DNA of 64,000 nucleotides from an uncultured Bacteroidales bacterium (GCA_947625885.1 CANQQA010000003.1:64726-128725), one strand, 5' to 3'; shown: positions 9,413-37,811, counted from the first letter of the stretch. A program made the numbers and translations. The notes: generated by a model not told the origin, from the sequence alone.

Positions 9413-10027
9413 ATGAAGAAATTTATATTGATTCAAAACGGCAAAGATGAGCCGATTGGAAAGTATAACACCAAGGCTGAAGCCTCCGACACTGTGGAAT
9501 ACATCATTGAAAAAAACAATGTTGGTTTACATTCGAGCGACGACCTATATTTGACAGTGTTTGACTTCAAAATAGAAGAATCAGAGGTCGAAGAAATCAA
9601 CGAAGTTGTTGCTAATTTTGACAATGCCAGATTTTACCTTAATATCAAGCCAAATGCGGATTTCACCTTTCCGAAAAAAATTTCTGGAAGCATTCTTGCA
9701 GACATTCGGCGTTTGGTTCGGGACGTAAACCCAAATCACATCAAAGCACTTATAGCCCTTAACGAGTTGTTCACCATTGCAGAGGCATGGAATAAGGCGG
9801 ATAACTTTGTTCCAGATTTCGGAAATACAAGTCAATACAAGTATTTCCCTTGGTTTGTATATAACAAGGGGGCTGCGGGGTTCGTTTGTGCGGCTGCGAA
9901 TGCTGCGGCGTCGTATACGAATGCGTCTGTCGGCTCTCGGCTTTGCTTCAAAACAGCGGAACGCGCGGAGCAATTCGGAAAGCAATTTGAGCCATTGTAT
10001 AATCAAGTTTTCTTACTTGGCAAATAA
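9413..10027 (+). CDS. Remote DGR target protein (carries VR2)
   Basis: 204 aa with no signal peptide. The C-terminal GAAGFVCAAANAAASYTNASVGSRLCF is encoded by a 76-bp copy of the TR, with mismatches only at TR adenines. Confidence 0.8.
   Translation: MKKFILIQNGKDEPIGKYNTKAEASDTVEYIIEKNNVGLHSSDDLYLTVFDFKIEESEVEEINEVVANFDNARFYLNIKPNADFTFPKKISGSILADIRRLVRDVNPNHIKALIALNELFTIAEAWNKADNFVPDFGNTSQYKYFPWFVYNKGAAGFVCAAANAAASYTNASVGSRLCFKTAERAEQFGKQFEPLYNQVFLLGK
9873..9948 (+). repeat. DGR variable repeat 2 (VR2)
   Basis: Gap-free alignment to TR positions 41-116 (45090-45165). By hand count there are 62 identities and 14 mismatches, all at TR adenines. It has the same 3' boundary (tgctt) and the same codon phase as VR1. 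Confidence 0.85.
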
Positions 10028-10044
10028 ATGTATCACTATAAAAC
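10027..10044 (+). promoter_or_regulatory. Recurrent phage motif copy 1 (aatgtatcactataaaac)
   Basis: Identical to the copy at 19982-19999. It overlaps the stop of the upstream gene and ends 7 nt before the ATG at 10052. Confidence 0.6.
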
Positions 10045-10051
10045 TTTTATT

Positions 10052-10483
10052 ATGGAAAAACAACTTGGACATGAATATCAAAATCTTGCACAACGTGAAG
10101 CATTCCTTAAAGACAATTGTGATGCTTGCGAACAAAAAGGTTATATGAAACCATACACCATGCAAGAATTGCAAGGACACAAAGAGAAACTTGCCAATGT
10201 TTCGATTGAGATTGCCGAAATAGAAGCAGAAAAGAAACGGATTGAATCCGACTTCAAGGGGCGCTTGAAACCCTTGAAAGAATCAAGGGCGATAATGGTT
10301 TCAAACATCAAGTCAAAGGCTGAATACGTGAACGAAGTGTGTTACCGCTTCACAGACCAAGAAACCAAGGAAACCGGGTATTACAACAAAGAGGGCATTT
10401 TGGTTGAATGCCGTCCGGCAACGGCTGATGAACTACAACCAAACATCTTTTCGATGGCGAGAAAGACAGGAACAAACGATTAA
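10052..10483 (+). CDS. Hypothetical coiled-coil protein
   Basis: The ORF track starts at 10028 (MYHYKTFIM...), but that ATG lies inside the recurrent motif. The ATG at 10052 (MEKQLGH) is preferred. Confidence 0.5.
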   Translation: MEKQLGHEYQNLAQREAFLKDNCDACEQKGYMKPYTMQELQGHKEKLANVSIEIAEIEAEKKRIESDFKGRLKPLKESRAIMVSNIKSKAEYVNEVCYRFTDQETKETGYYNKEGILVECRPATADELQPNIFSMARKTGTND

Positions 10484-10502
10484 CTTTTAATTTTTGAAGA
10501 AT

Positions 10503-11243
10503 ATGCAAAACGAAAAAATGCAAATCAATCTTGCGCCCGGAATTACAACCGCAGAAGTAATCTTGCGTGAGGGTGCAGCACCCAAGACACTTGACCCGAA
10601 AGCACCCGTAAAAACCGACCTGAAAGGTGTTATCGGTTGCGTTGTTGAGTACCTAACAAAGCGAATCAATGTTGGTCAGTTCGCCCAAAAGGATTCCCAC
10701 ATTCTTATCGACCGCGACAATGTGGAAATCACCTTGATAACCAACGAATCGGACGAATACACACGTGGAAAGGTTGTCGGCAAATTGAGTTACAACCCGA
10801 AATTCATTGAGTTTGGAATCAACCGCAACAAGGTATGGACACCGACAGAACTTGGTTTGTTTATCAAGATGAACCGTGCATTCTTTTCAGACCGCCAAAC
10901 CAATATGGCGTTGGTTTCAACCTTGATGAACTTTACCGCCACCGTGAACAACAAGATTGAACGTGCAATTGCCGAAAATGGCAATCGTACCGACAATTTC
11001 GCCCAAGTGGTCAATTCCAACTTGCCAGATTCATTCACTATTCAAATGCCGATTTTCAAGGGAATGCCAGCCGAAACAATCGAGGTCGAAATCTTTGCAC
11101 AGGTGAACGGGCGTGAAGTTGCATTCGTGCTTCTTTCGCCGGGCGCACAAGCAACACTTGAAGATTTACGCAACAAGGTGATTGATGATGAAATTGCAAA
11201 AATCAAAGAAATTGCACCCGAAATCGCAATCATTGAAATTTAG
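10503..11243 (+). CDS. Hypothetical protein
   Basis: The track ORF begins at a TTG at 10494. The first ATG is at 10503 (MQNEKMQ). No motif recognised. Confidence 0.5.
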   Translation: MQNEKMQINLAPGITTAEVILREGAAPKTLDPKAPVKTDLKGVIGCVVEYLTKRINVGQFAQKDSHILIDRDNVEITLITNESDEYTRGKVVGKLSYNPKFIEFGINRNKVWTPTELGLFIKMNRAFFSDRQTNMALVSTLMNFTATVNNKIERAIAENGNRTDNFAQVVNSNLPDSFTIQMPIFKGMPAETIEVEIFAQVNGREVAFVLLSPGAQATLEDLRNKVIDDEIAKIKEIAPEIAIIEI

Positions 11244-11301
11244 TGTATAATATCCAACCGACTTTCCATTTGGTTGGTCGGTTGGAATAACACTCTCAAC
11301 A

Positions 11302-12012
11302 ATGAAAGATACATTCTATTTTTCGCACGATTATAACGCACGAAGCGACCCCAAATTGCAAGATGTATTGATAACACACGGTGTTGCTGGCTTGGGTGTG
11401 TATTGGTGTATCATCGAACAAATGTACGAACAAGGTGGCGTGTTGCCTTTGAAATCATGCAAAAGCATTGCATTTGCATTGCACGTGGAAAGCAAGGTTG
11501 TTGAAAGCATCGTGAATGACTTTGAATTGTTCGTGAATGACGGCGAAAACTTTTGGTCTGAATCGGTAAAAAAACGTCTTGTAAAGATTTTGGACATTGC
11601 AGAAAAGCGCAAAGCGGCTGCCGCAAAAAGATGGCAATCAACGCAATTGCATAAAAACGACAACAAATGCAATGCAAATGCAGAGCAAATGCAATGCAAC
11701 TCGATGCAAAATAAAATAAAAGAAAATAAAATAAATAATAATATAAAAGAGAATATAAAAGAGAAAAGCGGAAGCCGCTTTTCACCGCCAACGATTGATG
11801 AAATAAGAAATTATATCATTGATAAGGGTTATTCCTTTGATGCTGAAAGTTTCTTTGATTTTTACGAAAGCAAGGGTTGGTTCGTGGGAAAAAATAAAAT
11901 GAAAGATTGGAAAGCTGCCGTCAGAAATTGGGCAAGAGGCGAAGAAGAACGCCAAGTAAAGCAGCGCCGAAAGGCTGTTTCAACAAACAATGTAAATGAT
12001 ATATGGAAATAG
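11302..12012 (+). CDS. Replication organiser/initiator-like protein (DUF4373-like N-terminus, phage replisome-organiser-like C-terminus)
   Basis: N-terminus is MKDTFYFSHDYNARSDPKLQDVLITHGVAGLGVYWCIIEQMYEQGG. C-terminus is IDEIRNYIIDKGYSFDAESFFDFYESKGWFVGKNKMKDWKAAVRNWA. The low-complexity linker is encoded by the iteron and AT-rich block. Confidence 0.6.
   Translation: MKDTFYFSHDYNARSDPKLQDVLITHGVAGLGVYWCIIEQMYEQGGVLPLKSCKSIAFALHVESKVVESIVNDFELFVNDGENFWSESVKKRLVKILDIAEKRKAAAAKRWQSTQLHKNDNKCNANAEQMQCNSMQNKIKENKINNNIKENIKEKSGSRFSPPTIDEIRNYIIDKGYSFDAESFFDFYESKGWFVGKNKMKDWKAAVRNWARGEEERQVKQRRKAVSTNNVNDIWK
11643..11768. promoter_or_regulatory. Candidate phage replication origin (iterons plus AT-rich block) inside the organiser gene
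   Basis: caaatgcaatgcaa occurs at 11664-11677 and again at 11686-11699, 22 bp apart. There are six ATGCA(A/G) units in about 45 bp. An inverted 15-bp copy (tgcatttgcattgca) is at 11469-11483. A nearly C-free AT-rich tract follows at 11707-11768. Confidence 0.4.
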
Positions 12013-12734: not shown

Positions 12735-13322
12735 ATGAAAATTTATATATCTGGTAAAGTAACAGGTTTGCCGTATGACTATGTTAAAGATAAGTTCAAT
12801 AGTGTAGAAGAATTATTGACTGAAATTGGCTTTGAAGTGGTGAACCCTTTGAACAATGGTCTTGACAAAGATGATATGTGGGAAAAACATATTTGCAAAT
12901 GTATTGAAATGTTATTGCCTTGTGATGCTATCTATATGATGAACAATTGGGTCGATTCAATAGGTGCTTCAATCGAATATGATATTGCAAATAGAACATC
13001 AAAGTATATCTGGTTTGAATCTAATGTTCTACGCAACAACACTATCTTAACAAGGATTCATAACGCAATTCACGAAGTGATGGGTTTGAAGATAGAAGAT
13101 TATATCGTCAAGTCGCGAAAACGTGATGGATTTTTTGCAAGAATGATTCTTGTTTACCATTGTAGGAGAGAGAAGATGCGTTTGGCGGATATTGCTGCGT
13201 ATGTGAAACGCGACCATTCAACAGTGCTTCATTTGTTGAAGAAATATCAAGACGATTTCACCTACAATTCAGATTTTAGGAATTTGGCAACAAGAGTGAA
13301 TGATATATTGAATAAAAAATAA
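12735..13322 (+). CDS. Fusion of a DUF4406 (nucleoside deoxyribosyltransferase-like) domain with a DnaA domain IV-like HTH
   Basis: N-terminus is MKIYISGKVTGLPYDYVKDKFNSVEELLTEIGFEVVNPL...CDAIYMMNNWVDSIGASIEYDIA. C-terminus is RKRDGFFARMILVYHCRREKMRLADIAAYVKRDHSTVLHLLKKY. Confidence 0.55.
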   Translation: MKIYISGKVTGLPYDYVKDKFNSVEELLTEIGFEVVNPLNNGLDKDDMWEKHICKCIEMLLPCDAIYMMNNWVDSIGASIEYDIANRTSKYIWFESNVLRNNTILTRIHNAIHEVMGLKIEDYIVKSRKRDGFFARMILVYHCRREKMRLADIAAYVKRDHSTVLHLLKKYQDDFTYNSDFRNLATRVNDILNKK

Positions 13323-14391: not shown

Positions 14392-14409
14392 AATGTGTTA
14401 TTATAAAAC
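14392..14409 (+). promoter_or_regulatory. Recurrent phage motif copy (aatgtgttattataaaac)
   Basis: Variant of the 18-nt motif, ending 9 nt before the ATG at 14419. Its internal ATG opens a 9-codon mini-ORF (MCYYKTEMR) whose TGA overlaps the downstream ATG. Confidence 0.5.
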
Positions 14410-14418
14410 AGAAATGCG

Positions 14419-16281: not shown

Positions 16282-16773
16282 ATGCCAAGGTTTGACAACA
16301 TCATTGCCATTGACCCAGATAAGGAAAAATCGGGCGTGGCGTTCCTAAAACCGTCTACAAGACAACTTGAAGTTACAAACTTGACATTTCCATTGTTGCT
16401 TGACTATCTGCAACACGCCAAAATGGTTCAAGAAGAAAAACAAGAATCCTTGATTGTAGTCGTTGAGGCTGGGTGGATTGTGAGAAAGTCCAATTTCCAC
16501 GAAGCGCAAGGACACAGGGCGGAAAAAATCGCAAAGGACGTTGGGGCAAATCACGAAACTGGGCGAAAAATTATTGAAATGTGCAAGCATTATGGAATCA
16601 ACGTCGTGCAACACCCACCATTGATTAAGTGTTGGAAAGGTAATGACAGAAAGATTACACATGAAGAATTGGCGTCATTTACCGGTTTGAGTGGTCGGAC
16701 AAATCAAGATTCCCGCGACGCAGCTTTGCTTGCTTGGGTGTTTGCAAACTTACCTATAAGGGTGAATGTTTGA
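16282..16773 (+). CDS. Possible RuvC-fold Holliday junction resolvase
   Basis: N-terminal IIAIDPDKEKSGVAFL resembles the first catalytic Asp strand of RNase H/RuvC-fold resolvases. Context is replication and recombination. Weak call. Confidence 0.35.
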   Translation: MPRFDNIIAIDPDKEKSGVAFLKPSTRQLEVTNLTFPLLLDYLQHAKMVQEEKQESLIVVVEAGWIVRKSNFHEAQGHRAEKIAKDVGANHETGRKIIEMCKHYGINVVQHPPLIKCWKGNDRKITHEELASFTGLSGRTNQDSRDAALLAWVFANLPIRVNV

Positions 16774-16805
16774 TAACTTTTTCCTATCTTTTTTTGTTAA
16801 GGTGT

Positions 16806-16823
16806 GTTTTATAGTGATTCACC
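16806..16823 (-). promoter_or_regulatory. Recurrent phage motif copy in opposite orientation (ggtgaatcactataaaac on the minus strand)
   Basis: This is the only copy not co-oriented with a downstream gene. It lies in the 16774-16858 gap, 35 nt before the ATG at 16859 on the other strand. Confidence 0.45.
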
Positions 16824-16858
16824 TCTTAACTTTGCGATTTCATCGCAAAACAGTAAAT

Positions 16859-17422
16859 ATGAAACCAATTGATTTTTCACAATCCACAAAAGTGTTGCAA
16901 AAACCGTCCACAATGACTGACAGTGAATGTCAATCATTGCACGTATGGAATGATGGCAAACAATGTGTATCATGTTGGAAAGCATCATTCAAGGAAAGAT
17001 TGAATATTTTATTTACGGGGATAGTTTGGTTGGGCGTGTTTTCTGGCAAGACACAACCGCCCGTTTTCGTGTCTGGCGAAGAAGTCTTTGAAAATTCGAC
17101 GTTAAAAGCCCGAATTTTGACGTTTGTTGCCGAAATTAAGGAGAAGTTCATTGACGTATGGGAAAATGTCAAGGAAGCCGCAAAACAGACCGACAAACGC
17201 AAATATTTTATTGTCGGTTTGACAATATCCATTGTTTTGGGGTCTTTGCTTGGTTGGCTGTTCGGATTTACAATCGGAATACTTGCCAAAATTTTCAAGG
17301 ATTTGTTGGATTCAAAAGGAAATGAAATGGTTGAGGTGATGGACATTGTATTTATGATGTTCGGTGCAGCTTGCGCAATTCCATTTTCTATTCTGTTTTA
17401 TTATTTCTTGATTTTGCGATGA
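16859..17422 (+). CDS. Membrane protein
   Basis: The MKPIDF start is preferred over the track start at 16766. C-terminal hydrophobic helices are YFIVGLTISIVLGSLLGWLFGFTIGILA and FMMFGAACAIPFSILFYYFLIL. The stop overlaps the next start (ATGA). Confidence 0.5.
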   Translation: MKPIDFSQSTKVLQKPSTMTDSECQSLHVWNDGKQCVSCWKASFKERLNILFTGIVWLGVFSGKTQPPVFVSGEEVFENSTLKARILTFVAEIKEKFIDVWENVKEAAKQTDKRKYFIVGLTISIVLGSLLGWLFGFTIGILAKIFKDLLDSKGNEMVEVMDIVFMMFGAACAIPFSILFYYFLILR

Positions 17423-18513: not shown

Positions 18514-19982
18514 TGAATAAAAAGGCGGACAAAATAAAGTTGTGCAAGGCGTTGAAAGAAAGGCTTATTCGTGAAAGTCGTTCTGATTTGTTGCGTTTTA
18601 CCCTTTCAACAATGCCGACATTTCGTCCGGCAGACTTTCACCGCCGATATTATCAAGTCTTGACCGATTTTGCAGATGGCAAGATTCGCAAACTTATGGT
18701 CTTTATGCCCCCGCAGCACGGTAAAAGCGAGGGTTCAACAAGGCGTTTACCCGCATTCCTATTAGGCAAGAATCCAGACAAAAAGTTGGCAATTGTGTCG
18801 TATAATGCGCCAAAGGCAAGGAAGTTTAATCGAGAAATACAACGTATCATTGACACCAAAGAATATCACGATATATTTCCGAACACCGCACTGAACACTT
18901 CAAATGTTACAACGGTGGCGGGTTCTTGGTTGCGAAATGCTGATGAATGCGAAATTGTTGGTTATCGTGGCGGATTCAAGACGGTTGGTGTTGGTGGTGC
19001 TTTGACGGGTGAACCCGTAGATATTTTGATAATGGACGACATTTATAAGGACGCAAAAACGGCTTGGTCGCCCGTTGTTCGTGAAAGTGTTGTCGATTGG
19101 TACGATACAGTTGCCGAAACCAGACTTCATAACGATTCGCAACAATTGATTGTGTTCACCAGATGGCACGAAGATGACTTGGCGGGAACGTTGTTGCGCC
19201 AACAAGGTGTTTATGACCCAGAAACAAACACAGATGGTTGGGTTGTCGTGATATACAAGGCTATCAAAGAGGGAAAACCGACAGAGTACGACCCACGCCA
19301 AGAGGGTGAAGCCCTTTGGAGTGAACGCCATAATTTGAGCAAGTTGCAGTCGATACGAAAGAGAAATCCGCAAGTGTTTGAATCTTTGTACCAGCAAGAC
19401 CCGCAGCCTCGTTCTGGGTTGATGTACGAAAGTGGATTTGTGGAATATTCGATTCGCCCGGCAACAAAATATGTCAAGCGAAAGTGTTATGTGGACACAG
19501 CCGATACGGGAGCAGATTATTTGTGCGCAATCGTATATGACGAAACAGATGTTGGGAACTACATTGTCGATGTTCTTTACACCACTCGCCCCGTTGAATA
19601 TACCGAACCAGCCCTTGCAAAGATGCTTACCAAACACCAAGTTGCGGAATGTGTTGTGGAAGCAAACAATGGCGGGCGATTGTTCAAGAACAATGTTGAA
19701 CGGCAATGCAGATTGATGGGCAATGCCAAGACAAAGTTTTCGTCTTTTCACCAATCCGAGAACAAAGACACGCGCATTTATCAAAATTCTGCAATGGTGC
19801 AGAATCTTACGTTTATGCCGCAAGGTTGGAAAAACTTATTTCCAGATTTCTCAAAGGCGATATGTAGTTACTTGAAAGCTGGACAAAATGAACATGATGA
19901 CGCCCCAGATGCTTTGACTGGAACAATAGAAAAACGAACAAACCACAAAAAATCGGACGTGGCAAGTCTTTTTGGGTATTAA
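18513..19982 (+). CDS. terL: Terminase large subunit
   Basis: Walker A-like FMPPQHGKSE and Walker B ILIMDD. C-terminal nuclease residues are VDTADTGADY and NEHDDAPDAL. Confidence 0.85.
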   Translation: MNKKADKIKLCKALKERLIRESRSDLLRFTLSTMPTFRPADFHRRYYQVLTDFADGKIRKLMVFMPPQHGKSEGSTRRLPAFLLGKNPDKKLAIVSYNAPKARKFNREIQRIIDTKEYHDIFPNTALNTSNVTTVAGSWLRNADECEIVGYRGGFKTVGVGGALTGEPVDILIMDDIYKDAKTAWSPVVRESVVDWYDTVAETRLHNDSQQLIVFTRWHEDDLAGTLLRQQGVYDPETNTDGWVVVIYKAIKEGKPTEYDPRQEGEALWSERHNLSKLQSIRKRNPQVFESLYQQDPQPRSGLMYESGFVEYSIRPATKYVKRKCYVDTADTGADYLCAIVYDETDVGNYIVDVLYTTRPVEYTEPALAKMLTKHQVAECVVEANNGGRLFKNNVERQCRLMGNAKTKFSSFHQSENKDTRIYQNSAMVQNLTFMPQGWKNLFPDFSKAICSYLKAGQNEHDDAPDALTGTIEKRTNHKKSDVASLFGY

Positions 19983-19999
19983 ATGTATCACTATAAAAC
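19982..19999 (+). promoter_or_regulatory. Recurrent phage motif copy (aatgtatcactataaaac)
   Basis: Identical to copy 1. It overlaps the terL stop and ends 7 nt before the ATG at 20007. Confidence 0.6.
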
Positions 20000-20006
20000 A
20001 GGTATT

Positions 20007-21925: not shown

Positions 21926-24328
21926 ATGGCAAAGAAAAGGCAGAAAACAACGCGGTTTTCGATTCAATCATACGATTCCGCACATTACAGGCAAACGGAG
22001 CAATACACCAAAGCTGTTGAAGCCTTATTTGACCGAGCCACCGCCGAAGTTTCAAAGGCAGCGGCAAAAGGCACATACAACCCAGATAAGCCATTTTCTT
22101 TTGATGATTACCCCGGTGTAAAGTCCGTTATGCAAGATGTAACCGAACAACTTGCAAGCAGAATGATAACGGTTATTGAAACGGGTTCAAAAAAACAGTG
22201 GTTGTTCGCTTGCAAGAAGAACGATGGCTTTATTGATTCGATAATGGAAACGTCAAAGTTGAGCAAGGCGATGTTGCAAAAGATGCAAGACCGAAACTTG
22301 GACGCATTACAGACATTCCAGCGGCGCAAGGTCGATGGAATGAACCTTTCGCAAAGGGTTTGGAAATATGTCGGTCAATACAAAGAGCAACTGGAATCTG
22401 CCCTTGATGTTGGATTGGGCGATGGTCGAAGTGCCGACCAACTTTCACGTGATGTCCGGAAAAACCTCAAAGAACCGAACCGATTATTTCGCCGTGTGCG
22501 AGATAAACGCGGAAACCTTGTATTGTCGAAAGCCGCAAAAGCCTTTCACCCCGGACAGGGAGTTTACCGTTCGTCGTACAAGAATGCAATGCGTTTGACG
22601 CGCTCCGAAATAAACATGGCATATAGAGAAAGCGACTTTTTGCGCTGGCAATCACTTGATTTCGTTGTTGGCTTTGAGATACACCGAAGTAATCACGAAC
22701 CATTGTGTAAATGCGACATTTGCCAACAATTGGTCGGTCGTTACCCAAAGACATTCAAGTTCAAAGGGTGGCACCCGCAATGTATGTGTTATGCCGTGCC
22801 TATATTGATGGACGAAGAAACCTTTGATGAAAATGAATTGGGCAACCTCAAAGCGGCATTGCGAGGAACGCAATACAAGAAATTGGAAGCGAAGAATATA
22901 GTTTCCGATGTGCCAGATGGATTCAAAGCATGGGTAAAAGACCATATAGATGCGCAAAAGAAATGGGGCTCGACGCCTTATTTTATTAAAGACAATTTCA
23001 AAAATGGCAAGTTGTCCGATGGATTGAAGATTGCATTGCCAACCATTGAATCACCGATTGACCCGATACAACAACAACTTGATGCGTTAAATGTGCAAAT
23101 TGTCCAAGCAAGGCAACAAGCCGCCAAGTGGGGATTATCCGTACAACTCACAATGCTTAACAAGTACGTTTCAGAAAGGGATATTGCTGGCGTGCGTATA
23201 AGAATAGCAACCATTCAATCAAAAGCGAAGATGATGGAACAAGCCGATGCGGATATTCGCCGCAAGTGTTCCGAATGGGGGTTGTCCACATACATTCTCG
23301 ATGAAGCAATGCGCAATCCAGATACAAAGAACATTTTGGAAAAAATGACTGAATTGGAAAATAGGTGCTTCAACGCTGAAAAAGAATACAATCAATTCAT
23401 TGCAAATGCCACAAATGCAATACAGGAAGCGCGAAAATACAAAATTGATGTTTTGGAAATGTTTAATTATGTTGCCACAATTACGAGCGATAAGCGCGAA
23501 TGGGTGATGGGCAAAAGTTCGTATAAACAGGCATTGCAAGATTTGTTGGATAAGATACGCAAAAGTGGTGGTGGCGATTCACCACACAAAGCAATACGAA
23601 CATCATACACAGCAAGTTCCGAACTTGACGACACTTTCAAGGTTATCAACTCCGAGTTTACCACCGAAAAGTGGTTTGAACACGGCGATTGTGTTTTGTC
23701 CGCAACGAAGAAAAGTGATGTAAACGGTTATACGTATATGGACGGGCGAATTTTCTTGAAAACTGAAAGACTTGAATACGTAAAATCCGCAATGGCTAAA
23801 ATCGGAAGTGGCAAATCAAATGAAATCACCTTTGAAGAAGCTGATGCAATGGCAACATTTTGGCACGAAATCACACACAACCGTAATGTTCCGGGCAATA
23901 TGAAAACAACAAAAGCGCAAACCAAAGTTATGGAAATGATGAACGAGTTTGTGGCACGAAAGACATTGCCGGAATTTTACGCAAAATTGGGTTGTGCCAA
24001 TACGCCACACCCGGAGTTCATCAACAATCGAAATTCAACGGGTTACAACCGCCGTGTGCTTATGTATGATTTTGTCATTTCAAAACTTGGTCTTGACCCG
24101 GCAAAAGTTCTTGCATCGGCGCGAAAGTATCTTTTTAGATTGGATTACACACAACAGGAAACAACCGCAATACAAGCATTGTTGGACGGTGGAATGGATA
24201 AGTTCATTCGTTTAGATGGTAAACCGATAGGAAAAGCCCAAATGAAAAAGATTGTTGCTTTATGCCGTAGTGGTGCAGGTGAGCAAACAATTGAAAACTA
24301 TATGCGAAAAGAGGGCATTATAAAATAA
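21926..24328 (+). CDS. MuF/SPP1 gp7-like head protein with a long C-terminal extension carrying HExxH
   Basis: MuF-type region RSEINMAYRESDFLRWQ...CKCDICQQL...WHPQCMCYAVPI lies in the first ~300 aa. A coiled coil follows, then FWHEITHN (HEITH at 23864-23878) with a downstream EMMNEF. Confidence 0.75.
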   Translation: MAKKRQKTTRFSIQSYDSAHYRQTEQYTKAVEALFDRATAEVSKAAAKGTYNPDKPFSFDDYPGVKSVMQDVTEQLASRMITVIETGSKKQWLFACKKNDGFIDSIMETSKLSKAMLQKMQDRNLDALQTFQRRKVDGMNLSQRVWKYVGQYKEQLESALDVGLGDGRSADQLSRDVRKNLKEPNRLFRRVRDKRGNLVLSKAAKAFHPGQGVYRSSYKNAMRLTRSEINMAYRESDFLRWQSLDFVVGFEIHRSNHEPLCKCDICQQLVGRYPKTFKFKGWHPQCMCYAVPILMDEETFDENELGNLKAALRGTQYKKLEAKNIVSDVPDGFKAWVKDHIDAQKKWGSTPYFIKDNFKNGKLSDGLKIALPTIESPIDPIQQQLDALNVQIVQARQQAAKWGLSVQLTMLNKYVSERDIAGVRIRIATIQSKAKMMEQADADIRRKCSEWGLSTYILDEAMRNPDTKNILEKMTELENRCFNAEKEYNQFIANATNAIQEARKYKIDVLEMFNYVATITSDKREWVMGKSSYKQALQDLLDKIRKSGGGDSPHKAIRTSYTASSELDDTFKVINSEFTTEKWFEHGDCVLSATKKSDVNGYTYMDGRIFLKTERLEYVKSAMAKIGSGKSNEITFEEADAMATFWHEITHNRNVPGNMKTTKAQTKVMEMMNEFVARKTLPEFYAKLGCANTPHPEFINNRNSTGYNRRVLMYDFVISKLGLDPAKVLASARKYLFRLDYTQQETTAIQALLDGGMDKFIRLDGKPIGKAQMKKIVALCRSGAGEQTIENYMRKEGIIK

Positions 24329-24329
24329 T

Positions 24330-24359
24330 AAAGTGGGGGGCTTCACGCCCCCCCACTTT
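24330..24359. terminator. Bidirectional hairpin terminator between convergent genes
   Basis: aaagtgggggg (24330-24340) pairs with ccccccacttt (24349-24359) around an 8-nt loop. It sits between the + gene ending at 24328 and the - gene ending at 24358. Confidence 0.7.
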
Positions 24360-24588
24360 ATTCGTTGTTCTCCGCTTCAAGTTCTTTTTTGTATTGCTTT
24401 TCGACGGCTTGCAACAAATCTTTGTTGTTAGTCAATTCCGCAAACTCAATGAGTACGTGAGCATTATAAAGCGGATATTCTTTCAAATCGCGAAAGAAAT
24501 CTTCTTTCGACACGACCAAATCTGCAATTATTTGTTCATCGTTGCAGAAATCAAAGATGGTCTTTTCTTTCAAATTGGTGTAGTCCAT
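24358..24588 (-). CDS. Hypothetical protein (inverted cassette)
   Basis: 76-aa acidic ORF, last gene of the minus-strand cassette. Confidence 0.45.
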   Translation of the reverse strand: MDYTNLKEKTIFDFCNDEQIIADLVVSKEDFFRDLKEYPLYNAHVLIEFAELTNNKDLLQAVEKQYKKELEAENNE

Positions 24589-25167: not shown

Positions 25168-25719
25168 TTATATATTAAAATCAAACCATTCACGGGGAGA
25201 ATTGAACGCAGCCTTTTTCACTTGCCGATAAAAAGCCTTATTCAATTTGCGTATCCTTGCCAAACATTCGTGTGGATTCCAACGGAAGTCTGGCATCATT
25301 TCGTTGTTCGCGGCATAAATACCGCCTTGTTTTGGTTCAAAATGTCCAAAGGCAACCAAGTTCCCATCTTTGATGAAAACAACTTCCTTGATGTGTTTGT
25401 TGAGCTTGTGGCGGTATGTTAAGGACGTGCAAGTGTTGTAATACTCAACAATCTTGTGTTGCCGTTCCATCGCTTCTTGCAGCTTGGTTGCCTTATTCTT
25501 TCGGAAGTCCCACATATTTTTGGCAACTTGATGCCGAAGTTCCGCTACATTGATAGGTTCGCTTCCGATTGCCATATCATACGGAAATGTGCCGTTGGCA
25601 AACATTCTTACAGCACGAACAAAGTTCTCTTTGTCCACCACTTTGTCGTGAAGTTCATTCACGAAATCAACACGTAAACCATACTTGGCTGCGAGTGCTT
25701 CAAAATTCATCTTTTCCAT
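25168..25719 (-). CDS. Hypothetical protein (inverted cassette)
   Basis: 183-aa ORF. No motif recognised. Confidence 0.5.
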   Translation of the reverse strand: MEKMNFEALAAKYGLRVDFVNELHDKVVDKENFVRAVRMFANGTFPYDMAIGSEPINVAELRHQVAKNMWDFRKNKATKLQEAMERQHKIVEYYNTCTSLTYRHKLNKHIKEVVFIKDGNLVAFGHFEPKQGGIYAANNEMMPDFRWNPHECLARIRKLNKAFYRQVKKAAFNSPREWFDFNI

Positions 25720-25734
25720 GCAAATGTAACAAAT

Positions 25735-25989
25735 TTATTTAATATAACTATTATTTTTTTGTTGTTTAGTTTTATTCGGTGTGATTAAAAGTGTATGGGC
25801 TGCCAAACTTAATGCACGGGCATTGAAGTCGTGCTTCAAGGCAATTTCTTCTTGCCCGTCATTGTCGGCTTTTGTTGATGTCAAAAGTTCCATGTCCATT
25901 ATCCGTGCTATTGTCTTGAACATTCGTTTTGATGCTTCATACAATCGGCGATTATATTCGTCGTCAGTCATTGTGTTGATTGCTTTCAT
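25735..25989 (-). CDS. Hypothetical protein (inverted cassette)
   Basis: 84-aa ORF. No motif recognised. Confidence 0.45.
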   Translation of the reverse strand: MKAINTMTDDEYNRRLYEASKRMFKTIARIMDMELLTSTKADNDGQEEIALKHDFNARALSLAAHTLLITPNKTKQQKNNSYIK

Positions 25990-25998: not shown

Positions 25999-26952
25999 TT
26001 AATTGTTATTTATACCAATAATATACAAGCAATTCTTTTCCGGAAGCAGTTTGTTTACACCATCAAGGGTTGCGCCTGTTGTCAAGATGTCATCAAACAC
26101 AATGATGTTATGTTCTTTAATATCAACGTGCAATGCGAATTGTGGGTTGATGCGTTGTCTTGTCTTTGCGGTTATTGCATCATTGTAAAATGGGATTCCC
26201 AGCTTTTTAGCAATCACCAAACAAACGCTTTCGGCAAAGTTCGTTTCCTTGTGGCGGCGTTTGGGCGTCGTGAGCAACGCCCAATCATCATTGTGGCGCA
26301 ATCCAACCACACGGCGAATAACATTCAAGGCGGCATCTGCAAACAATCCAACATTGGAGAAATCCGCCTTAATGGTGGATAATGGATAACCTTGTTCGCT
26401 TTTCTTGAAGCAGGAAATGAAAGAAAAATCACGTTTTGGGTGCCAGCCGATGCAATCTTTCAAATCGCACACGCTTTCTTGGGAGTTGGCGGCAGAGTTC
26501 CACCCTGCACGTTTCTTTTCTTGCGGTTGTTCCTCAAATTGCGGTTCCTCAAATTGCGAAATGTCAATTGCCCATTCTTGGAGTTCTACGGCGTCCCACC
26601 CATCAAGAAGTGCTTTGTAATCCCAATCACCGAAATCCCCATTGTCCTTGATGATATAGTTTCGGAGTTTTTCAACTGGCGTTTCCTTTGGGATAATGAT
26701 GCAAGGAACATCATCGAATCCAAGCCGCCTCAATGCTTGTAAACGCATATTTCCGCCGACAGTGATATACTTGCCATCTGCAATCGGATAAACGAGCAGC
26801 CCACGCAATTGCAACATTTCGGGGTCTTGTTTAATGCTTTCAACCAGCTTATCAAGTTTTGCGGGGTTTGTGATACGCGGATTCGGGGGCAAGCCCGGAA
26901 CTTGCCCCGTGTTGTTCTCAATCCGCATGATTGGAATGTTTGTTGTTATCAT
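25999..26952 (-). CDS. ParB-N domain fused to a ComF-like phosphoribosyltransferase domain
   Basis: N-terminus LLVYPIADGKYITVGGNMRLQALRRLGFDDVPCIII is ParB/Srx type. The C-terminal PRPP-binding loop is HNIIVFDDILTTGATLDGV. An acidic linker lies between them. Confidence 0.75.
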   Translation of the reverse strand: MITTNIPIMRIENNTGQVPGLPPNPRITNPAKLDKLVESIKQDPEMLQLRGLLVYPIADGKYITVGGNMRLQALRRLGFDDVPCIIIPKETPVEKLRNYIIKDNGDFGDWDYKALLDGWDAVELQEWAIDISQFEEPQFEEQPQEKKRAGWNSAANSQESVCDLKDCIGWHPKRDFSFISCFKKSEQGYPLSTIKADFSNVGLFADAALNVIRRVVGLRHNDDWALLTTPKRRHKETNFAESVCLVIAKKLGIPFYNDAITAKTRQRINPQFALHVDIKEHNIIVFDDILTTGATLDGVNKLLPEKNCLYIIGINNN

Positions 26953-27293: not shown

Positions 27294-27301
27294 TGTTGTG
27301 C

Positions 27302-27319
27302 GTTTTATAGTAATACATT
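27302..27319 (-). promoter_or_regulatory. Recurrent phage motif copy (aatgtattactataaaac on the minus strand)
   Basis: Ends 8 nt upstream of the minus-strand ATG at 27293 (SLOG gene). Confidence 0.55.
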
Positions 27320-27992: not shown

Positions 27993-28220
27993 TTATTCCC
28001 AGTATGCGACTGCGTAGACCTCTTTATTGCTATCTTCATCAATCACGTATATAGCGTATGTTTCTCCGCTCCAACTTTCAAGCTCTCTCGGACACGGGAA
28101 AGCCGAACAATCGGCGCTTCGGTATTCTATGCGGCAATTGCCGCCATAATAATTTACAAAATCGTTTACCATTTCTTCTGCCTCGCTGTATGTGTAGGCA
28201 CTTTCTCTTTTTGTTTTCAT
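27993..28220 (-). CDS. Hypothetical protein (first gene of the inverted cassette)
   Basis: 75-aa acidic ORF. Confidence 0.45.
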   Translation of the reverse strand: MKTKRESAYTYSEAEEMVNDFVNYYGGNCRIEYRSADCSAFPCPRELESWSGETYAIYVIDEDSNKEVYAVAYWE

Positions 28221-28254
28221 TTTTCTTTTTGTTTTAAGCTGTTATTGTTAGCGT

Positions 28255-28272
28255 GTTTTATAGTAACACACC
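28255..28272 (-). promoter_or_regulatory. Recurrent phage motif copy (ggtgtgttactataaaac on the minus strand)
   Basis: Ends 34 nt upstream of the minus-strand ATG at 28220. Confidence 0.5.
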
Positions 28273-28376
28273 GCAAATATAATAGTTATATTTAATATAA
28301 CAAACTTTTTCGGCAAAAAATGCACTTGCAATGCAAAATGTTGATAAGTTAAGCACAAATAGACTTGCATATATCA

Positions 28377-28394
28377 TTTGTATCACTATAAAAC
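28377..28394 (+). promoter_or_regulatory. Recurrent phage motif copy (tttgtatcactataaaac)
   Basis: Ends 44 nt upstream of the ATG at 28439. It lies between the candidate -33 and -7 boxes. Confidence 0.55.
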
Positions 28395-28438
28395 ATTATA
28401 TTTTTGTGATGATTTGTTGAACATAAATTTTCAAAAAA

Positions 28439-29131
28439 ATGAAAGAAACGATTTTGGCACTACTGATTGCGAAGTTTTCAGGCGTGCGAAAGGACGGATT
28501 GGCGGTGCTGGCACGTTCCCTTGCGTTACAGTGCGCAACCGAAGATGATGCGAAAGCCCTTGTTGAAAAAATCACCGATGCGCAAGTGAATGAATACGTC
28601 AAGGACTATCGCACCGAAGTGGATAAAGAAGTGTCCAACAGTAACAAGACATTTGAATCGAACTTGCGAAAGAAGTACAACTTCGTTGAGCGGCAAACGG
28701 AACCCGGCAACGAGCCACAACGCGAAGATATGGACAGCGTCCGCAAGATTGTGAAAGAGGCTGTTGCGGAAGCGGTAACGCCACTTCAAGAAAGATTGTC
28801 AAGTTACGAACAAGGCAACATTGAGAAAACAAGGCTTCAAACATTGAACGAAAAATTGGCTGATTGCAAGGACGAAACTTTCAAGGCGCAAACATTGAAA
28901 GATTTTTCCCGCATGAAGTTCGATACGGACAATGACTTCAATGAATACTTGAACGAAAAGGTTGCGGACATTGCAACGGCAAATCAAAATGTTGCCAATG
29001 CAAAATTGAGTAATTCTGGCGGAATACCGCTGTTTTCACAAAAAGAGGAAAGCGGTGTGTCCAAAGGTGTTGCCGATTTCTTGGCAAACCAAAAAACCGA
29101 TAACAACCCGTTATCTGGTAAAGAACTCTAA
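28439..29131 (+). CDS. Probable capsid scaffolding protein
   Basis: 230 aa, acidic and coiled-coil rich, two genes upstream of the major capsid gene. Confidence 0.5.
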   Translation: MKETILALLIAKFSGVRKDGLAVLARSLALQCATEDDAKALVEKITDAQVNEYVKDYRTEVDKEVSNSNKTFESNLRKKYNFVERQTEPGNEPQREDMDSVRKIVKEAVAEAVTPLQERLSSYEQGNIEKTRLQTLNEKLADCKDETFKAQTLKDFSRMKFDTDNDFNEYLNEKVADIATANQNVANAKLSNSGGIPLFSQKEESGVSKGVADFLANQKTDNNPLSGKEL

Positions 29132-33782: not shown

Positions 33783-33783
33783 T

Positions 33784-36700: not shown

Positions 36701-37788
36701 TTGACGCAGTAACAAACGGGTTGGAGAAGATGGGCGTTACAATGGACGACGAAACCAAAGCAATAATGGGTGATATTGGCGGAATACTTGACGGCGCAAG
36801 TCAAATCGCAAGTGGTATTGCAACGGGAAATCCTTTGTCCATCATTCAAGGTTCGATAGGGTTGCTTACGTCTGCATTCGACCTTTTCAACACGAAAGAC
36901 AGACAGGCGGAAAGGCAAATAAAGAAGCATCAAGAAGCCATCGCGAAACTTGAAAAAGAATACACGCAATTGTCGTGGGCTATTGACAAAGCGCTTGGCG
37001 GCGATGTATATAAGAACCAACAATCCGCCATTCGCAACATGAAAGAGCAACAAGAACATTTGCGAGAATCTTGGAATGCCGAAATTTCAAAGAAAAAGAC
37101 CGATTGGGATAAAGTGGACGATTTCAAAGAACAATATGCTGAATTGGAGCGCCAAATTACAGATATGTACGATGAAATTTCTAACGACCTTTTACAGGTA
37201 ACGGCAAAAGACTTTGCCACTCAATTGTCTGATAGCTTAACAACGGCATTTAAGTCGGGCGAAGATTCGGCAAAGGCATTTGAAGATACGGTAAATGCGG
37301 TATTGCAAAACGTTGTCGTGAACCAATTGAAGAAGAAGTTTTTGGAACAACAACTTCAAGGCGCACTTGACCAATTAGAGGGTGCGATGGGTTATTGGAA
37401 TGGCGATGATTTTGTTTTCACCGGATTGACAGACGCGGAAATTGCATCGTTCAAGGCAAGGGTTCAAACAGCCGCCAACAACTACGAACAAGCATTAAGC
37501 GTTTATTCGGACTTGTTCAAGGATATGAACATTGAAGAATCTGATGATTCATTGACGGGGGCAGTCAAGGGTGTTTCAGAGGAAACCGCAAGCATTGTTG
37601 CCGGGCAAATGAATGCAATCCGCATCAATCAACTTGAAGCAACCAACATTTTACGACAACAGTTGCAGACGTTGAACGCAATTGCCACAAATACGTCATA
37701 CAACCGATATTTGGCAAGGATTGAAAGAATTATTACAATACTTGAAACCTATTCTGGCGATTCTTTAAGGTCAAAGGGTTTATCGTAG
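33784..37788 (+). CDS. Tail tape measure protein
   Basis: 1334 aa, coiled-coil rich, with a hydrophobic central segment (AATAATVAGTTANIGLAGAFRMVGAAIKSIPVFGWVLTGISALIALV). Confidence 0.9.
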   Translation: MAEINGGSLSFKSEMDNNQLNAAIDETLRRVQGFSDAVVGSGDVMDNTTQEMIAQVRSALAKIGDACDEHEQALDRLGQEYDRLGQEMGRAFASGRDDEFRALQERRNAIQGEITVRKQLLNELHEQSNVLESEAAKLEESARQAEEAANKHVSLRSRIKELREEMALYREAYGDQTEDYKKMAAELGRLQDIQGDIQAQGKIFANDEAQFQGIITGLSGVAGGFTAAQGAMALFTGENENLQKVMLKVQSLMSITMGLQQTAQALNKDSAFRLVTLNRLKEWWNKLLAVGRGEQIAATAATVAGTTANIGLAGAFRMVGAAIKSIPVFGWVLTGISALIALVTHFVSKAREAKKAQEEWYKSIAENSYKPIAKIEELSLKWNALSDDFEAKRKFIEQNKKAFDELGVSINGVTDAENILNKNKGAFIQAQIDKAKAMLLVQQAQDKVKTLMEKEQEYNAMPDKVRESVMVGISPGNEAPVYEQVWVVNKAKEEVGKSIKALRDEITQGFEDASIAESAGFNALKQAGIEATETYADGTLGAIEQAIQREQATLKSITNNADYEDALKRISDLQKQAEAITGKGTTGSNVGDKKDLFLEKLNARKAEYQRFAKWLNSGDAILVQSANKEFEGLLKEGSTYIDYLKNQRDQILSIDVANRTKAQNKQLRQLNDAIAEETKQTVLEAFNTELNEQLTNAKTTLEMLKIIEQKRKELANDGTELDTAKGKTLDDAEKNAKEQLVEETQELLENYASYAKQKGLIDEAYNRDYEALMARRKQTTDEAAKAEIDAAIANRKKKRDDDVNNIGGVDYNALLSEYGTFEQRKQAIIDEYEEKRKAAQAVGNAEMVEALNKAQAEALSKFALDELQAHPDWELMFGDLDEISTRKLQELIDKINGLDGVYLGIEFDPKDLEVLKDKVEAMKSEIKERNPFKSLVSSIKDYGKAANDESKKKALTNMFESASGAIDLIGGTLDAVTNGLEKMGVTMDDETKAIMGDIGGILDGASQIASGIATGNPLSIIQGSIGLLTSAFDLFNTKDRQAERQIKKHQEAIAKLEKEYTQLSWAIDKALGGDVYKNQQSAIRNMKEQQEHLRESWNAEISKKKTDWDKVDDFKEQYAELERQITDMYDEISNDLLQVTAKDFATQLSDSLTTAFKSGEDSAKAFEDTVNAVLQNVVVNQLKKKFLEQQLQGALDQLEGAMGYWNGDDFVFTGLTDAEIASFKARVQTAANNYEQALSVYSDLFKDMNIEESDDSLTGAVKGVSEETASIVAGQMNAIRINQLEATNILRQQLQTLNAIATNTSYNRYLARIERIITILETYSGDSLRSKGLS

Positions 37789-37793
37789 CAAAA

Positions 37794-37811
37794 TGTGTTT
37801 CACTATAAAAC
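37794..37811 (+). promoter_or_regulatory. Recurrent phage motif copy (tgtgtttcactataaaac)
   Basis: Lies between the tape measure stop and the next gene, ending 6 nt before the ATG at 37818. Confidence 0.55.

Follow-up and report, generated by a model that had tools for sequence, protein, structure and literature searches.

A dispersed 17-bp dyad as a candidate operator at promoters and between genes in a family of Bacteroidales prophages

The closest described counterparts of the site reported here are the stoperators of cluster A mycobacteriophages (L5 gp71, Bxb1, TipsytheTRex), in which one short site is dispersed genome-wide over promoters and operon gaps. In L5-like phages, repressor sites are documented at promoters and also, with a constant orientation with respect to transcription, in the short gaps between genes (PMC9283540). 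Stoperators are 13-bp asymmetric sites present in more than 20 copies and read by a monomer with two DNA-binding domains, and the immunity repressor of L5 reads both the stoperators and the early lytic promoter. The C1 repressor of phage P1 controls many separate operons through a site of about 17 bp dispersed over the genome; its operators are asymmetric and placed at promoters, and promoterless inter-cistron sites are not their hallmark. In P2/P4, the Ogr/Delta dyad TGT-N12-ACA, centred near -55, is common to all late operon promoters. Operators of the lambda/434/P22 type and the boxes of R-M C-proteins are pseudo-palindromes of 14-19 bp with half-sites one turn apart that overlap the core promoter, the classical operators being clustered in one or two control regions. 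To our knowledge, almost nothing is known about gene control in Bacteroidales temperate phages.

The window considered here is a stretch of 64,000 nucleotides from an uncultured Bacteroidales bacterium (GCA_947625885.1 CANQQA010000003.1:64726-128725) that holds such a prophage. A first-pass annotation had listed eight copies of a short motif ahead of gene blocks, and all eight were confirmed, position and strand alike, together with the identity of the 18-mers at 10027-10044 and 19982-19999 and the gaps from the 16-mer to the ATG (7, 9, 7, 8 and 6 nt in the five copies nearest their genes; 44 and 34 nt at the divergent region, one for each arm). The copy at 16806, assigned to the minus strand, is present, but its strand is ambiguous owing to its near-palindromic sequence; it forms part of a rightward promoter-like module, and the orientation call flips among relatives. 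The sequence TGTRTYAYTATAAAAC has six exact matches against 0.00 expected from 100 dinucleotide-preserving shuffles, and nine against 0.54 when up to three mismatches are allowed, one of the nine (at 45436, in a reverse-transcriptase ORF) being probably due to chance. An additional, degenerate ninth copy was found at 43337-43353, so that the copies are dispersed from 10.0 to 43.4 kb. Within the prophage, the octamer TATAAAAC is confined to motif copies, and the early block 4318-10027 has none. No description of the motif was found in the literature searched. The nine copies are as follows.

S1, 10029..10045, plus strand: between genes, TGTATCACTATAAAACT; 1 nt past the stop codon that ends ORF 9413-10027, with the ATG at 10052 following after 6 nt
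S2, 14394..14410, plus strand: between genes, TGTGTTATTATAAAACA; 8 nt before the ATG (14419) of a DnaQ-like exonuclease
S3, 16805..16821, plus strand: promoter-associated, preceding the packaging block, TGTTTTATAGTGATTCA
S4, 19984..20000, plus strand: between the large terminase and portal genes, TGTATCACTATAAAACA; 6 nt before the ATG at 20007
S5, 27301..27317, minus strand: between genes of the leftward operon, TGTATTACTATAAAACG; 7 nt before the ATG (27293) of the SLOG gene
S6, 28254..28270, minus strand: putative operator of the leftward promoter PL, TGTGTTACTATAAAACA
S7, 28379..28395, plus strand: promoter-associated, preceding the head/tail block, TGTATCACTATAAAACA
S8, 37796..37812, plus strand: between genes, past the tape-measure gene, TGTTTCACTATAAAACG; 5 nt before the ATG at 37818
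S9, 43337..43353, plus strand: degenerate, promoter-associated, TGGGTTATTATAACACA; preceding the tail-fibre/DGR/lysis block

More than 100 related viral contigs (IMG/VR) keep the motif at the gene boundaries where it stands in the window, and so do prophages in contigs labelled Alistipes, Prevotella, Parabacteroides, Bacteroides pyogenes, Muribaculaceae and Alloprevotella, although the flanks have diverged; a variant is present in a Porphyromonas gingivalis phage; S9 is the counterpart of the 44872 site in the Porphyromonas phage phage005b. The unit is a 17-bp pseudo-palindrome, TGTnTYA-CTA/TAG-TRAnACA, composed of half-sites TGTnTYA around a 3-bp centre, with the half-site centres 10 bp apart. 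Among 213 non-redundant family sites, five of the eight position pairs (1/17, 2/16, 3/15, 5/13 and 7/11) show complementarity at frequencies of 81-100%, whichever class is considered. Many of these sites are homologous, so that the family counts overstate independent events. Perfect palindromes occur in relatives: phage005b has three identical copies of TGTTTTA-ATA-TAAAACA, and others carry TGTATTA-CTA-TAATACA, TGTGTTA-CTA-TAACACA or TGTCTTA-CTA-TAAGACA. Where a -7 box lies downstream, the central trinucleotide reads CTA in 33 sites and its reverse complement TAG in 32. The promoter-associated class collapses to about four ancestral positions.

A pseudo-palindrome with half-sites one helical turn apart agrees with the operators of XRE/Cro-C1 dimers, and in this respect the site resembles the lambda/434/P22-type operators and C-protein boxes; unlike the classical operators, its copies extend over 33 kb and more than half of them lie away from promoters. 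The dispersal of a single site is shared with the P1 C1 operators, whereas the dyad and the between-gene copies are not. Compared with the stoperators, which it resembles in its dispersal over promoters and operon gaps and in the single orientation of the between-gene copies, the site is a 17-bp dyad, suggesting a dimer, and is present in only nine copies; neither this phage nor the cluster A phages have a polymerase of their own. On balance, and with moderate confidence, we regard the motif as a DNA operator for a dimeric HTH regulator of this prophage family that would act at promoters and as a roadblock between genes. The sequences themselves show the symmetry, the two classes of site, the fixed phasing with -7 boxes, the conservation in the family and the independence from the LuxR-type protein considered below; protein binding, repression and the identity of the protein are what we infer. 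The regulator dimer would read the 17-bp pseudo-palindrome as its operator at all nine sites.

Four of the nine window copies have a perfect Bacteroidetes -7 box (TAnnTTTG) at a distance of 3-8 nt, the offsets being fixed. The first-pass annotation had seen no match to the Bacteroidetes promoter, which is true of the motif itself (TATAAAAC is not TAnnTTTG) but not of its immediate surroundings at these four copies. The promoter features are listed below.

16827..16834, plus strand: -7 box of the S3 module, perfect TAACTTTG, 5 nt downstream of S3; ATG at 16859
28274..28303, minus strand: PL, a complete Bacteroidetes-type promoter with TTG (28303-28301), a 19-nt spacer and TATATTTG (28281-28274); an arrangement kept in about 25 relatives
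28339..28356, plus strand: upstream box, TGTTGATAAGTTAAGCAC, DnaA-box-like with ATAAGT repeats
28399..28406, plus strand: -7 box of the head/tail promoter, perfect TATTTTTG, 3 nt downstream of S7; ATG at 28439
43362..43369, plus strand: -7 box of the S9 module, perfect TAGTTTTG, 8 nt downstream of S9; ATG at 43391

The complete promoter form TTG-N18/19-TAnnTTTG is seen in PL and in the head promoter. S6 begins 3 nt downstream of the PL -7 box and thus covers the predicted start site, and S7 fills the spacer of TTG(28378)-N18-TATTTTTG. The three copies that lie 3-8 nt upstream of their -7 box precede the packaging, head and tail-fibre/lysis blocks, and S3 is embedded in a longer hairpin whose stem shows compensatory changes among relatives. 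The upstream box goes along with the promoter-associated sites, related boxes being present at 16770-16779 and 43310-43334. A perfect TAnnTTTG lies within a few nucleotides of 97 of the 162 family sites that are not gene-proximal, and the offsets are sharply peaked: in 65 sites the box follows after 3 or 5 nt, and in 19 it precedes the site by 3 nt. All four promoter-associated window sites fit this pattern. By a rough estimate, a box that near would be expected by chance at well under 1% of sites. Overlap with core promoter elements, as for XRE/Cro-C1 dimer operators, was thus found at four of the nine window copies. At PL the bound protein would sit on the predicted transcription start, and at the three rightward promoters (packaging, head/tail, tail-fibre/lysis) it would occupy the -33/spacer region, immediately before the -7 box. 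Judging from position only, protein bound there should block RNA polymerase, and the overlap of four copies with ordinary host-type (sigma-A) promoters would then mean repression.

A site in the promoter spacer could instead serve an activator of the MerR type. According to this explanation, which we consider unlikely, the dimer would be an activator of late genes, of class II, MerR-like or working in the manner of the P2 Ogr dyads, that switches on the packaging, head and tail promoters from the spacer/-33 region. The dimer would also shut PL by covering its start site, as phi29 p4 does, and the between-gene copies would be secondary or titration sites. This explanation accords with the common layout before each of the three late blocks (ATAAGT/DnaA-like box, site, -7 box), with the divergence of PL and the head promoter from one region with a site on each, and with the -33 TTTG elements, which are mostly missing at these promoters in relatives, so that the promoters may need help. 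However, the -7 boxes are perfect and the window head promoter has TTG at N18, so that it need not rely on an activator, and with only 3-8 nt between the end of the site and the -7 box, one would normally expect a bound dimer to collide with polymerase. Nor does an activator give a role to the five promoterless copies, the majority class in this subfamily. The site has in common with P2/P4 a TGT...ACA dyad at the late operon promoters, but TGT and ACA are N11 apart, the site adjoins the -7 box, and one copy covers a start site, a repressing position. No zinc-finger Ogr-like protein was seen in the phage.

The leading idea of the first-pass annotation was a phage-specific promoter giving near-leaderless transcripts; its reader would be a phage factor. 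The motif presumably shares the octamer TCACTATA with T7/SP6 promoters and a TATAAA core with T4 late promoters, so that TATAAAAC might be a -10-like element comparable to T4 late TATAAATA, or TCACTATA a T7-like core. Like those promoters, it is a contiguous conserved block repeated at the starts of gene blocks; it is AT-rich, highly conserved (about 28 bits) and absent from the early block. In contrast to T7/SP6 and T4, no matching polymerase or gp55-like sigma factor accompanies it. No phage RNA polymerase or sigma factor came up in searches with Pfam, PHROGs and NCBIfam or in scans for catalytic motifs; looking for DxDGD and T7 motif A/C in all six frames yielded nothing credible, and the 800-aa ORF is a head-morphogenesis protein and not a polymerase; the only sigma-like signal was a weak region-4-like match in the GerE protein considered below. 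The dyad and the perfect palindromes in relatives are at odds with recognition by a sigma factor or single-subunit polymerase, the centre occurs in both orientations, and the site, with its set offsets to host -7 boxes, lies upstream of the box at three promoters and downstream at PL. A promoter function of its own is not supported for the motif, and we rate it as distinctly improbable; a further point against it is that in B. thetaiotaomicron 5' UTRs shorter than 10 nt make up only about 3.7% (PMC7366714).

The five remaining window copies (S1, S2, S4, S5 and S8) have no promoter and lie in gaps of 24-34 nt between co-directional genes, just past a stop codon and 5-8 nt before an ATG, all oriented with the genes. 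The neighbourhood of S1 holds no -7 box, and none of 123 gene-proximal family sites has one downstream. Nine of the 123 were excluded for a perfect box upstream (mostly PL sites); among the 114 left, a relaxed box within 8 nt upstream was found in none, against 19 of 570 in the background. No terminator-like hairpin was found ahead of gene-proximal copies. The centre reads CTA in the sense direction in 101 of the 114, which are not phylogenetically independent sites. Of 33 gene-proximal variants, not one reaches a folding energy of -1 kcal/mol or better, in contrast to the PL-type variants, 7 of 10 of which make a perfect 7-bp hairpin; pair 4/14 is complementary in 21 of 114 gene-proximal sites compared with 15 of 27 PL-type sites, and pair 6/12 in 16 of 114 compared with 26 of 27. 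The A-rich arm (TAAAACA) of the gene-proximal copies occupies roughly positions -10 to -14 relative to the ATG, and translation in Bacteroidetes is favoured by adenines at -3, -6 and -11 to -15 (PMC7366714).

By analogy with the cluster A stoperators, the between-gene copies are most likely roadblocks, at which bound protein would gate or silence read-through transcription in the long co-directional arrays. In contrast to the cluster A case, the promoters with a site here are accessory and late, not early lytic. Against a roadblock, a dimer on a symmetric site would not obviously give a block with polarity. The constant orientation and spacing of the between-gene copies can be ascribed to constraints on the mRNA, namely an A-rich arm in the initiation region and no hairpin: the arm would serve translation initiation, and the two free positions of each arm would keep the transcript unfolded before the start codon. 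A direct transcriptional or translational role explains the one orientation and the narrow spacing to the ATG equally well. A more far-reaching reading, to which we give a low probability, is that the between-gene copies, instead of being passive roadblocks, would form a new kind of intra-operon switch that joins a DNA dyad and its bound protein to the translation initiation region. The 17 bases would serve twice, as an operator in the DNA and, in mRNA, as an A-rich ribosome landing pad, and the bound factor would gate polymerase in a polar manner or re-start transcription, giving leaders of 10-13 nt.

The first-pass annotation had also suggested an RNA processing or translation element. Such an element would be an inter-cistron recognition site in the RNA, bound by a processing nuclease or by a protein that activates or represses translation. 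In agreement with this, the distance from the end of the site to the start codon is 5-12 nt, in the sense orientation, for the five window copies and for 114 family sites, PL transcripts are predicted to start with the motif, and the A-rich arm occupies a translation-relevant region of Bacteroidetes. As a function shared by all copies, however, it is not supported: the packaging, head and tail sites are upstream of the predicted start site, and their centre occurs in either orientation. Moreover, the conserved bases form the DNA dyad, the gene-proximal variants are exactly those without an RNA hairpin, no Rfam family matched, and no RNA-binding protein was recognised. What stands of the suggestion is the A-rich arm near -11 to -15, and we rate an element acting in RNA as distinctly improbable.

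The between-gene copies might also be mainly recombination linkers, short stretches of identity at module borders through which related phages would exchange gene cassettes; this would be compatible with any other model, but we think it very improbable. The 16-mer is identical among phages with diverged flanks, gene-proximal copies head at least 15 different, alternative gene families, the phage encodes RecT and an SbcC-like ATPase, and across S1 the identity falls from 79% (ORF 10052) to 58% (ORF 9413). On the other hand, 17 bp is short for homologous exchange, the dyad symmetry and -7 box phasing are left unexplained, other junctions show no clear identity step, and the low identity of ORF 9413 may reflect the DGR variable region.

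The operator reading calls for a protein, and the further suggestion of the first-pass annotation that the motif is the site of a phage regulator is supported, at the level of sequence, by the dyad, the -7 box phasing and the conservation in the family. Three proteins were considered.

2839..3129, minus strand: candidate binding protein, 96-aa XRE/Cro-C1-type HTH, adjoining the integrase
4318..4539, plus strand: alternative candidate binding protein, 73 aa, first gene of the early rightward operon
4539..4931, plus strand: LuxR/GerE-type HTH protein of the first-pass annotation, not required for the site

Of the lysogeny-module proteins, the product of ORF 2839-3129 is the best conserved one; every family member with sequence extending that far has it. 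Its model (pLDDT 91) is closest in fold to ImmR, R-M controller proteins, 434 Cro and lambda cI; it is the best candidate for the binding protein. The 4318-4539 product, which the whole family has, shows a small helical XRE-like fold with weak matches; the structural matches of both candidates are weak (E-value 0.26 or worse). The small XRE-fold proteins of the family have ImmR, C.BclI, C.Esp1396I, 434 Cro and lambda cI among their nearest folds. The LuxR-type protein, put forward earlier as a possible regulator, is not required for the site: locus L153 and phage005b lack it and keep the sites, and L172, L183 and L184 have it without a copy before the replication gene. In contrast to L5, no copy is present at the immunity switch, that is, in the CI/cro intergenic (immunity) region 4116-4317 or its counterparts, with a look-alike only in L146; the binding protein is therefore not the CI/Cro pair of the switch.

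Two other DNA-binding systems were compared and rejected. The non-canonical LexA (SOS) motifs reported for Bacteroidetes, GGA-N5-TCC or CTAA-N5-TTAG, are unlike TGTnTYA-N3-TRAnACA (PMC8565304). The 16-bp parS palindrome of ParB, TGTTNCACGTGAAACA, resembles the site in its left half only, and the ParB_N ORF 25999-26952 is not conserved, being present in only three family loci.

The prophage family is widespread in gut and oral Bacteroidales genomes, and a single operator marking an accessory promoter, three late promoters and several block borders would provide a first regulatory map of these phages. The operator reading predicts a master regulator, and the operator/regulator pair could be of use for Bacteroides genetic engineering. 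Should the between-gene copies stop elongation, silencing of the stoperator type would have evolved a second time, independently, in an unrelated phylum and with a symmetric site. It would also be an example of a single sequence shaped at once by the protein that binds it as DNA and by the translation signals it carries as mRNA. If the intra-operon switch were true, Bacteroidales phages would have evolved a stoperator-like system of their own, built on another protein-DNA architecture.

A re-scan of the window recovered the eight motif copies reported in the first-pass annotation, and their coordinates, strands and distances to start codons were confirmed. The degenerate 16-mer TGTRTYAYTATAAAAC gave 6 exact matches against 0.00 expected, and the consensus with at most 3 mismatches gave 9 against 0.54 expected, eight of them being these copies; the remaining match, at 45436 inside a reverse-transcriptase ORF, is probably due to chance. 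Within the prophage, the octamer TATAAAAC was found exclusively inside motif copies. An arm-based search added a ninth window copy at 43337-43353 (S9 in our numbering, S1-S9). The prophage itself spans about 48 kb with 41% G+C, surrounded by host DNA of about 55% G+C, and is organized as follows.

Ends: integrase, 1562-2839, to tRNA-Ser, 49081-49169
Gene order, start: lysogeny module, early block, replication genes, exonuclease/SSB/resolvase
Early block: Cro-position gene, GerE/LuxR HTH, DUF3853, SbcC-like ATPase, RecT, Apyc1-like MBL nuclease
Gene order, later part: packaging, portal and minor head protein, leftward accessory operon, head-tail operon, DGR, lysis genes

Several features of this setting were recorded in passing. 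ORF 8651-9403 is an MBL-fold nuclease whose homologue in the Porphyromonas gingivalis phage phage005b is annotated as the anti-Pycsar protein Apyc1, and the 800-aa minor head protein (21926-24328) matches a PHROG annotated as Bxa ADP-ribosyltransferase. The DGR template repeat (45050-45165) and the variable region (44841-44956) in a tail-fibre-like gene show 16 differences, all at template adenines. A third copy of the repeat lies in the early ORF 9413-10027, directly upstream of the first motif copy, and by eye its last ~75 nt, at 9874-9948, differ from the template at adenines only; ORF 9413-10027 is predicted to hold a second variable region of the DGR. The rightward operon (minor head) and the leftward operon converge on a strong 14-bp GC-rich hairpin at 24327-24362. 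Flanked on each side by T-rich or A-rich sequence, it probably terminates transcription in both directions.

The motif unit is 17 bp long and symmetric about its centre. In phage005b it forms a perfect inverted repeat, TGTTTTA-ATA-TAAAACA, and other relatives carry the perfect dyads TGTATTA-CTA-TAATACA, TGTGTTA-CTA-TAACACA and TGTCTTA-CTA-TAAGACA. Among 213 non-redundant sites of the family, pairs 1/17, 2/16, 3/15, 5/13 and 7/11 were complementary in 81-100% of sites in every class, whereas pairs 4/14 and 6/12 are free (N and Y/R) and the centre reads CTA or, in reverse complement, TAG. One subgroup combines the same arms with a flipped centre in the copy ahead of the replication gene (TGTTTCA-TAG-TAAAAC). 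Half-sites TGTnTYA with centres 10 bp apart are the pattern expected of a helix-turn-helix dimer; neither a sigma factor nor a single-subunit polymerase would give rise to it, and nor would an RNA-binding protein.

Other readers of the motif were considered and rejected. The motif contains TCACTATA, which is also found in the T7 core; no T7-like or other phage RNA polymerase was detected by Pfam, PHROGs, PDB sequence search or catalytic-motif scans, and neither a phage sigma factor nor a T4 gp55 analogue was found in the prophage. The LuxR-type protein at 4539-4931, suggested in the first-pass annotation as a possible binder, had to be abandoned, as L153 (one of the related loci compared, which carry L numbers) and phage005b keep the sites without it. 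The GerE/LuxR protein was conserved in all 12 motif-bearing loci reaching far enough upstream, and in L172, L183 and L184 it was present with the copy before the replication gene missing. The left half of the motif looks like half of a parS site, but few members of the family have the ParB_N ORF, and few carry the SLOG gene. Published Bacteroidetes SOS motifs differ from the site, which excluded a host LexA box (PMC8565304).

Four of the nine window copies adjoin perfect Bacteroidetes -7 boxes (TAnnTTTG), in two arrangements.

S3, 16805: 5 nt upstream of the -7 box TAACTTTG at 16827
S7, 28379: 3 nt upstream of the -7 box TATTTTTG at 28399; the site shares its first bases with the TTG at N18
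S9, 43337: 8 nt upstream of the -7 box TAGTTTTG at 43362
S6, 28254, minus strand: 3 nt downstream of the -7 box, at 28274 on the minus strand, of a complete leftward promoter, TTG-N19-TATATTTG

The leftward promoter, here called PL, was kept almost base for base in about 25 relatives, and with S6 lying 3 nt past its -7 box the predicted start site is covered. Family-wide, 162 sites fall outside the gene-proximal class, and 97 of them had a perfect -7 box at sharply peaked offsets: in 65 the box lay 3 or 5 nt downstream, and in 19 it lay 3 nt upstream. The rightward promoter modules lie ahead of the packaging, head-tail and tail-fibre/DGR/lysis blocks and also share an upstream box of ATAAGT repeats plus the DnaA-box-like TGTKGATAA. 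Such ATAAGT/ATAACT repeats, including TGTKGATAA, precede each promoter-associated site (28339-28356, 43310-43334 and 16770-16779; in L141 near 15200, 30500 and 44850), and could be read by a phage protein with a DnaA C-terminal HTH domain (12735-13322).

At 16798-16830, the flanks of S3 lengthen the dyad into a longer hairpin followed by a T-rich tract, and its stem shows compensatory changes between phages (GGGGTGT/ACACCCC, AGCGTGT/ACACGCT, GGGTGTG/CACACCC). An equivalent was present in L121, L122, L124, L125, L127-L131 and L138. This hairpin looks like a terminator ending the replication/recombination block, with the operator inside it. Further repeats, TGCAATGCA / ATGCAAAA, resembling origin iterons, cluster at 11457-11712 in the replication-initiator gene (11302-12012) and recur at 4210-4278 in the immunity region and at 28320-28340 in the divergent late region, and palindromes such as TTTGCGAT-N3-ATCGCAAA occur downstream of the -7 box at 16827; these repeats and palindromes may be sites of a second regulator.

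A second copy of the PL region, 76% identical and without the operator, was found at 25720-25757, upstream of a conserved 183-aa ORF (25168-25719). Its -7 box TACATTTG ends 1 nt before the annotated ATG, and the transcript of this ORF may be leaderless, or the second ATG may be the true start codon. In about 25 related loci, the gene that opens the leftward operon (27993-28220 in the window) is different almost every time, whereas promoter, operator and the end of the 5' UTR (TTTCGCAACAATG) stay conserved. Accessory genes, possibly with an anti-defence role, thus have a hot spot directly after PL. An invertible promoter between the two divergent copies was rejected, since the segment was arranged alike in all relatives examined and the apparent inversions were strand calls on a palindrome.

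S1, S2, S4, S5 and S8 lie between genes. At such gene-proximal sites across the family, between co-directional genes and shortly before an ATG, no downstream -7 box was found (0/123). A perfect upstream box was present in nine of the 123, seven of which are misclassified PL sites, with L036 and L108 as true exceptions. After these nine were set aside, even a relaxed -7 box within 8 nt upstream occurred in none of the remaining 114 sites, against a background of 19/570, and hidden promoters of this type upstream of the between-gene copies were rejected on this count. The gene-proximal sites begin 0-9 nt past a stop triplet, their 17-mer ends 5-12 nt before the ATG (mode 7-8), at least 15 different gene families stand behind them, and no terminator-like hairpin was found before them.

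The first-pass annotation had also raised an RNA element. Rfam matched only the tRNA-Ser at the prophage end, which spoke against a known RNA family or tRNA-linked element. In the gene-proximal class, pair 4/14 was complementary in 21/114 sites and pair 6/12 in 16/114 (mostly A/A and C/A), and no variant out of 33 folded at -1 kcal/mol or better. At PL-type sites, those like S6, the same pairs were complementary in 15/27 and 26/27, and 7 of 10 variants formed a perfect 7-bp hairpin of about -4 kcal/mol. The 16-mer is usually followed by a gap of 8-9 nt, which puts the AAAA of its proximal arm at about -10 to -14 from the ATG; in Bacteroidetes translation, adenines at -11 to -15 are favourable and Shine-Dalgarno pairing is not used (PMC7366714). 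We suggest that TGTnTYA-N3-TRAnACA is kept constant by a protein, whereas the free positions follow what the transcript requires. This would explain why the consensus reads TGTATCACTATAAAAC and how it is oriented and spaced, with no RNA function assigned to the motif.

With a site over the start site, as S6 at PL, repression would be the only option, and for a dimer site whose end lies 3-8 nt away from a perfect -7 box, repression is the most likely outcome as well. These positions make a single repressor the simplest model: it would hold the accessory leftward promoter and three late promoters, and on the between-gene copies the same protein would act as a roadblock or gate. Both modes of action, repression and roadblock, are inferences, as is the choice of binding protein. 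L5-like mycobacteriophages have operators at promoters and stoperators in short intergenic gaps, in a single orientation relative to transcription (PMC9283540). The sites described here likewise lie at promoters and in short gaps between genes in one orientation, whereas the site is a symmetric 17 bp, has 9 copies and is absent from the immunity switch, whose CI is encoded at 3726-4115. Because these differences are real, we liken the sites to stoperators in their working and do not place them in that family. In L146, a Bacteroides pyogenes prophage with a CI of a different, S24-peptidase type, a look-alike dyad (AGTATCA-TTG-TGATACA, 1755-1775) lies in the immunity region, with a -7 box 10 nt away; no site was found in the immunity region of any other relative examined.

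The DNA-binding candidates that occur throughout the family, phage005b included, are three: ORF 2839-3129, ORF 4318-4539 and DUF3853 (5190-5471). ORF 2839-3129 is the best conserved lysogeny-module protein, with 78-90% identity in the subfamily with gene-proximal sites and 55-69% in L153, L172, L183/L184 and phage005b. Its model is a five-helix XRE fold (pLDDT 91), closest to ImmR, ClgR, R-M controller proteins, 186 CI, SinR, 434 Cro and lambda cI, although the E-values of these matches are weak (0.26 or worse). ORF 4318-4539 was modelled as a small helical protein (pLDDT 94) with weaker matches to the same folds. Our guess favours ORF 2839-3129, because a lysogeny-module protein suits a silencing role.

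The exact 16-mer was found in at least 120 IMG/VR stretches, about 20 being chance matches within unrelated genes; the others occupy the same boundaries between genes as the window copies, and their flanks have diverged. Prophages were also retrieved through the portal protein only, with the motif not used for selection; those that proved to carry it come from contigs with the labels Alistipes, Prevotella, Parabacteroides, Bacteroides pyogenes, Muribaculaceae and Alloprevotella. Down to a portal identity of about 69%, most relatives kept the copy before the portal gene; more distant ones lost it and carry copies elsewhere. A nucleotide search of the phage collection returned no close relative; among annotated phages, phage005b comes closest (76% identity in the large terminase). 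It has three identical copies of the variant TGTTTTAATATAAAACA, the counterparts of the three rightward promoter modules of the window, and no gene-proximal copy; it is active and can be cultured, in ATCC 49417. Its large terminase gene (L141, 17686-20133) exceeds the window gene by about 1 kb and matches in two pieces, which suggests an insertion, e.g., an intein or added domain.

In the collection of papers searched, four 12-mers of the motif or its reverse complement matched only unrelated primer or siRNA sequences, and the words 'promoter' and 'repressor' are both absent from the paper on the closest isolated phage. A phage operator with dispersed copies is a known kind of element. This variant of it is not a known one: a symmetric site that is placed in two geometries on promoters of the host type, that also merges with translation initiation regions, and that is conserved across a widespread family of Bacteroidales prophages.
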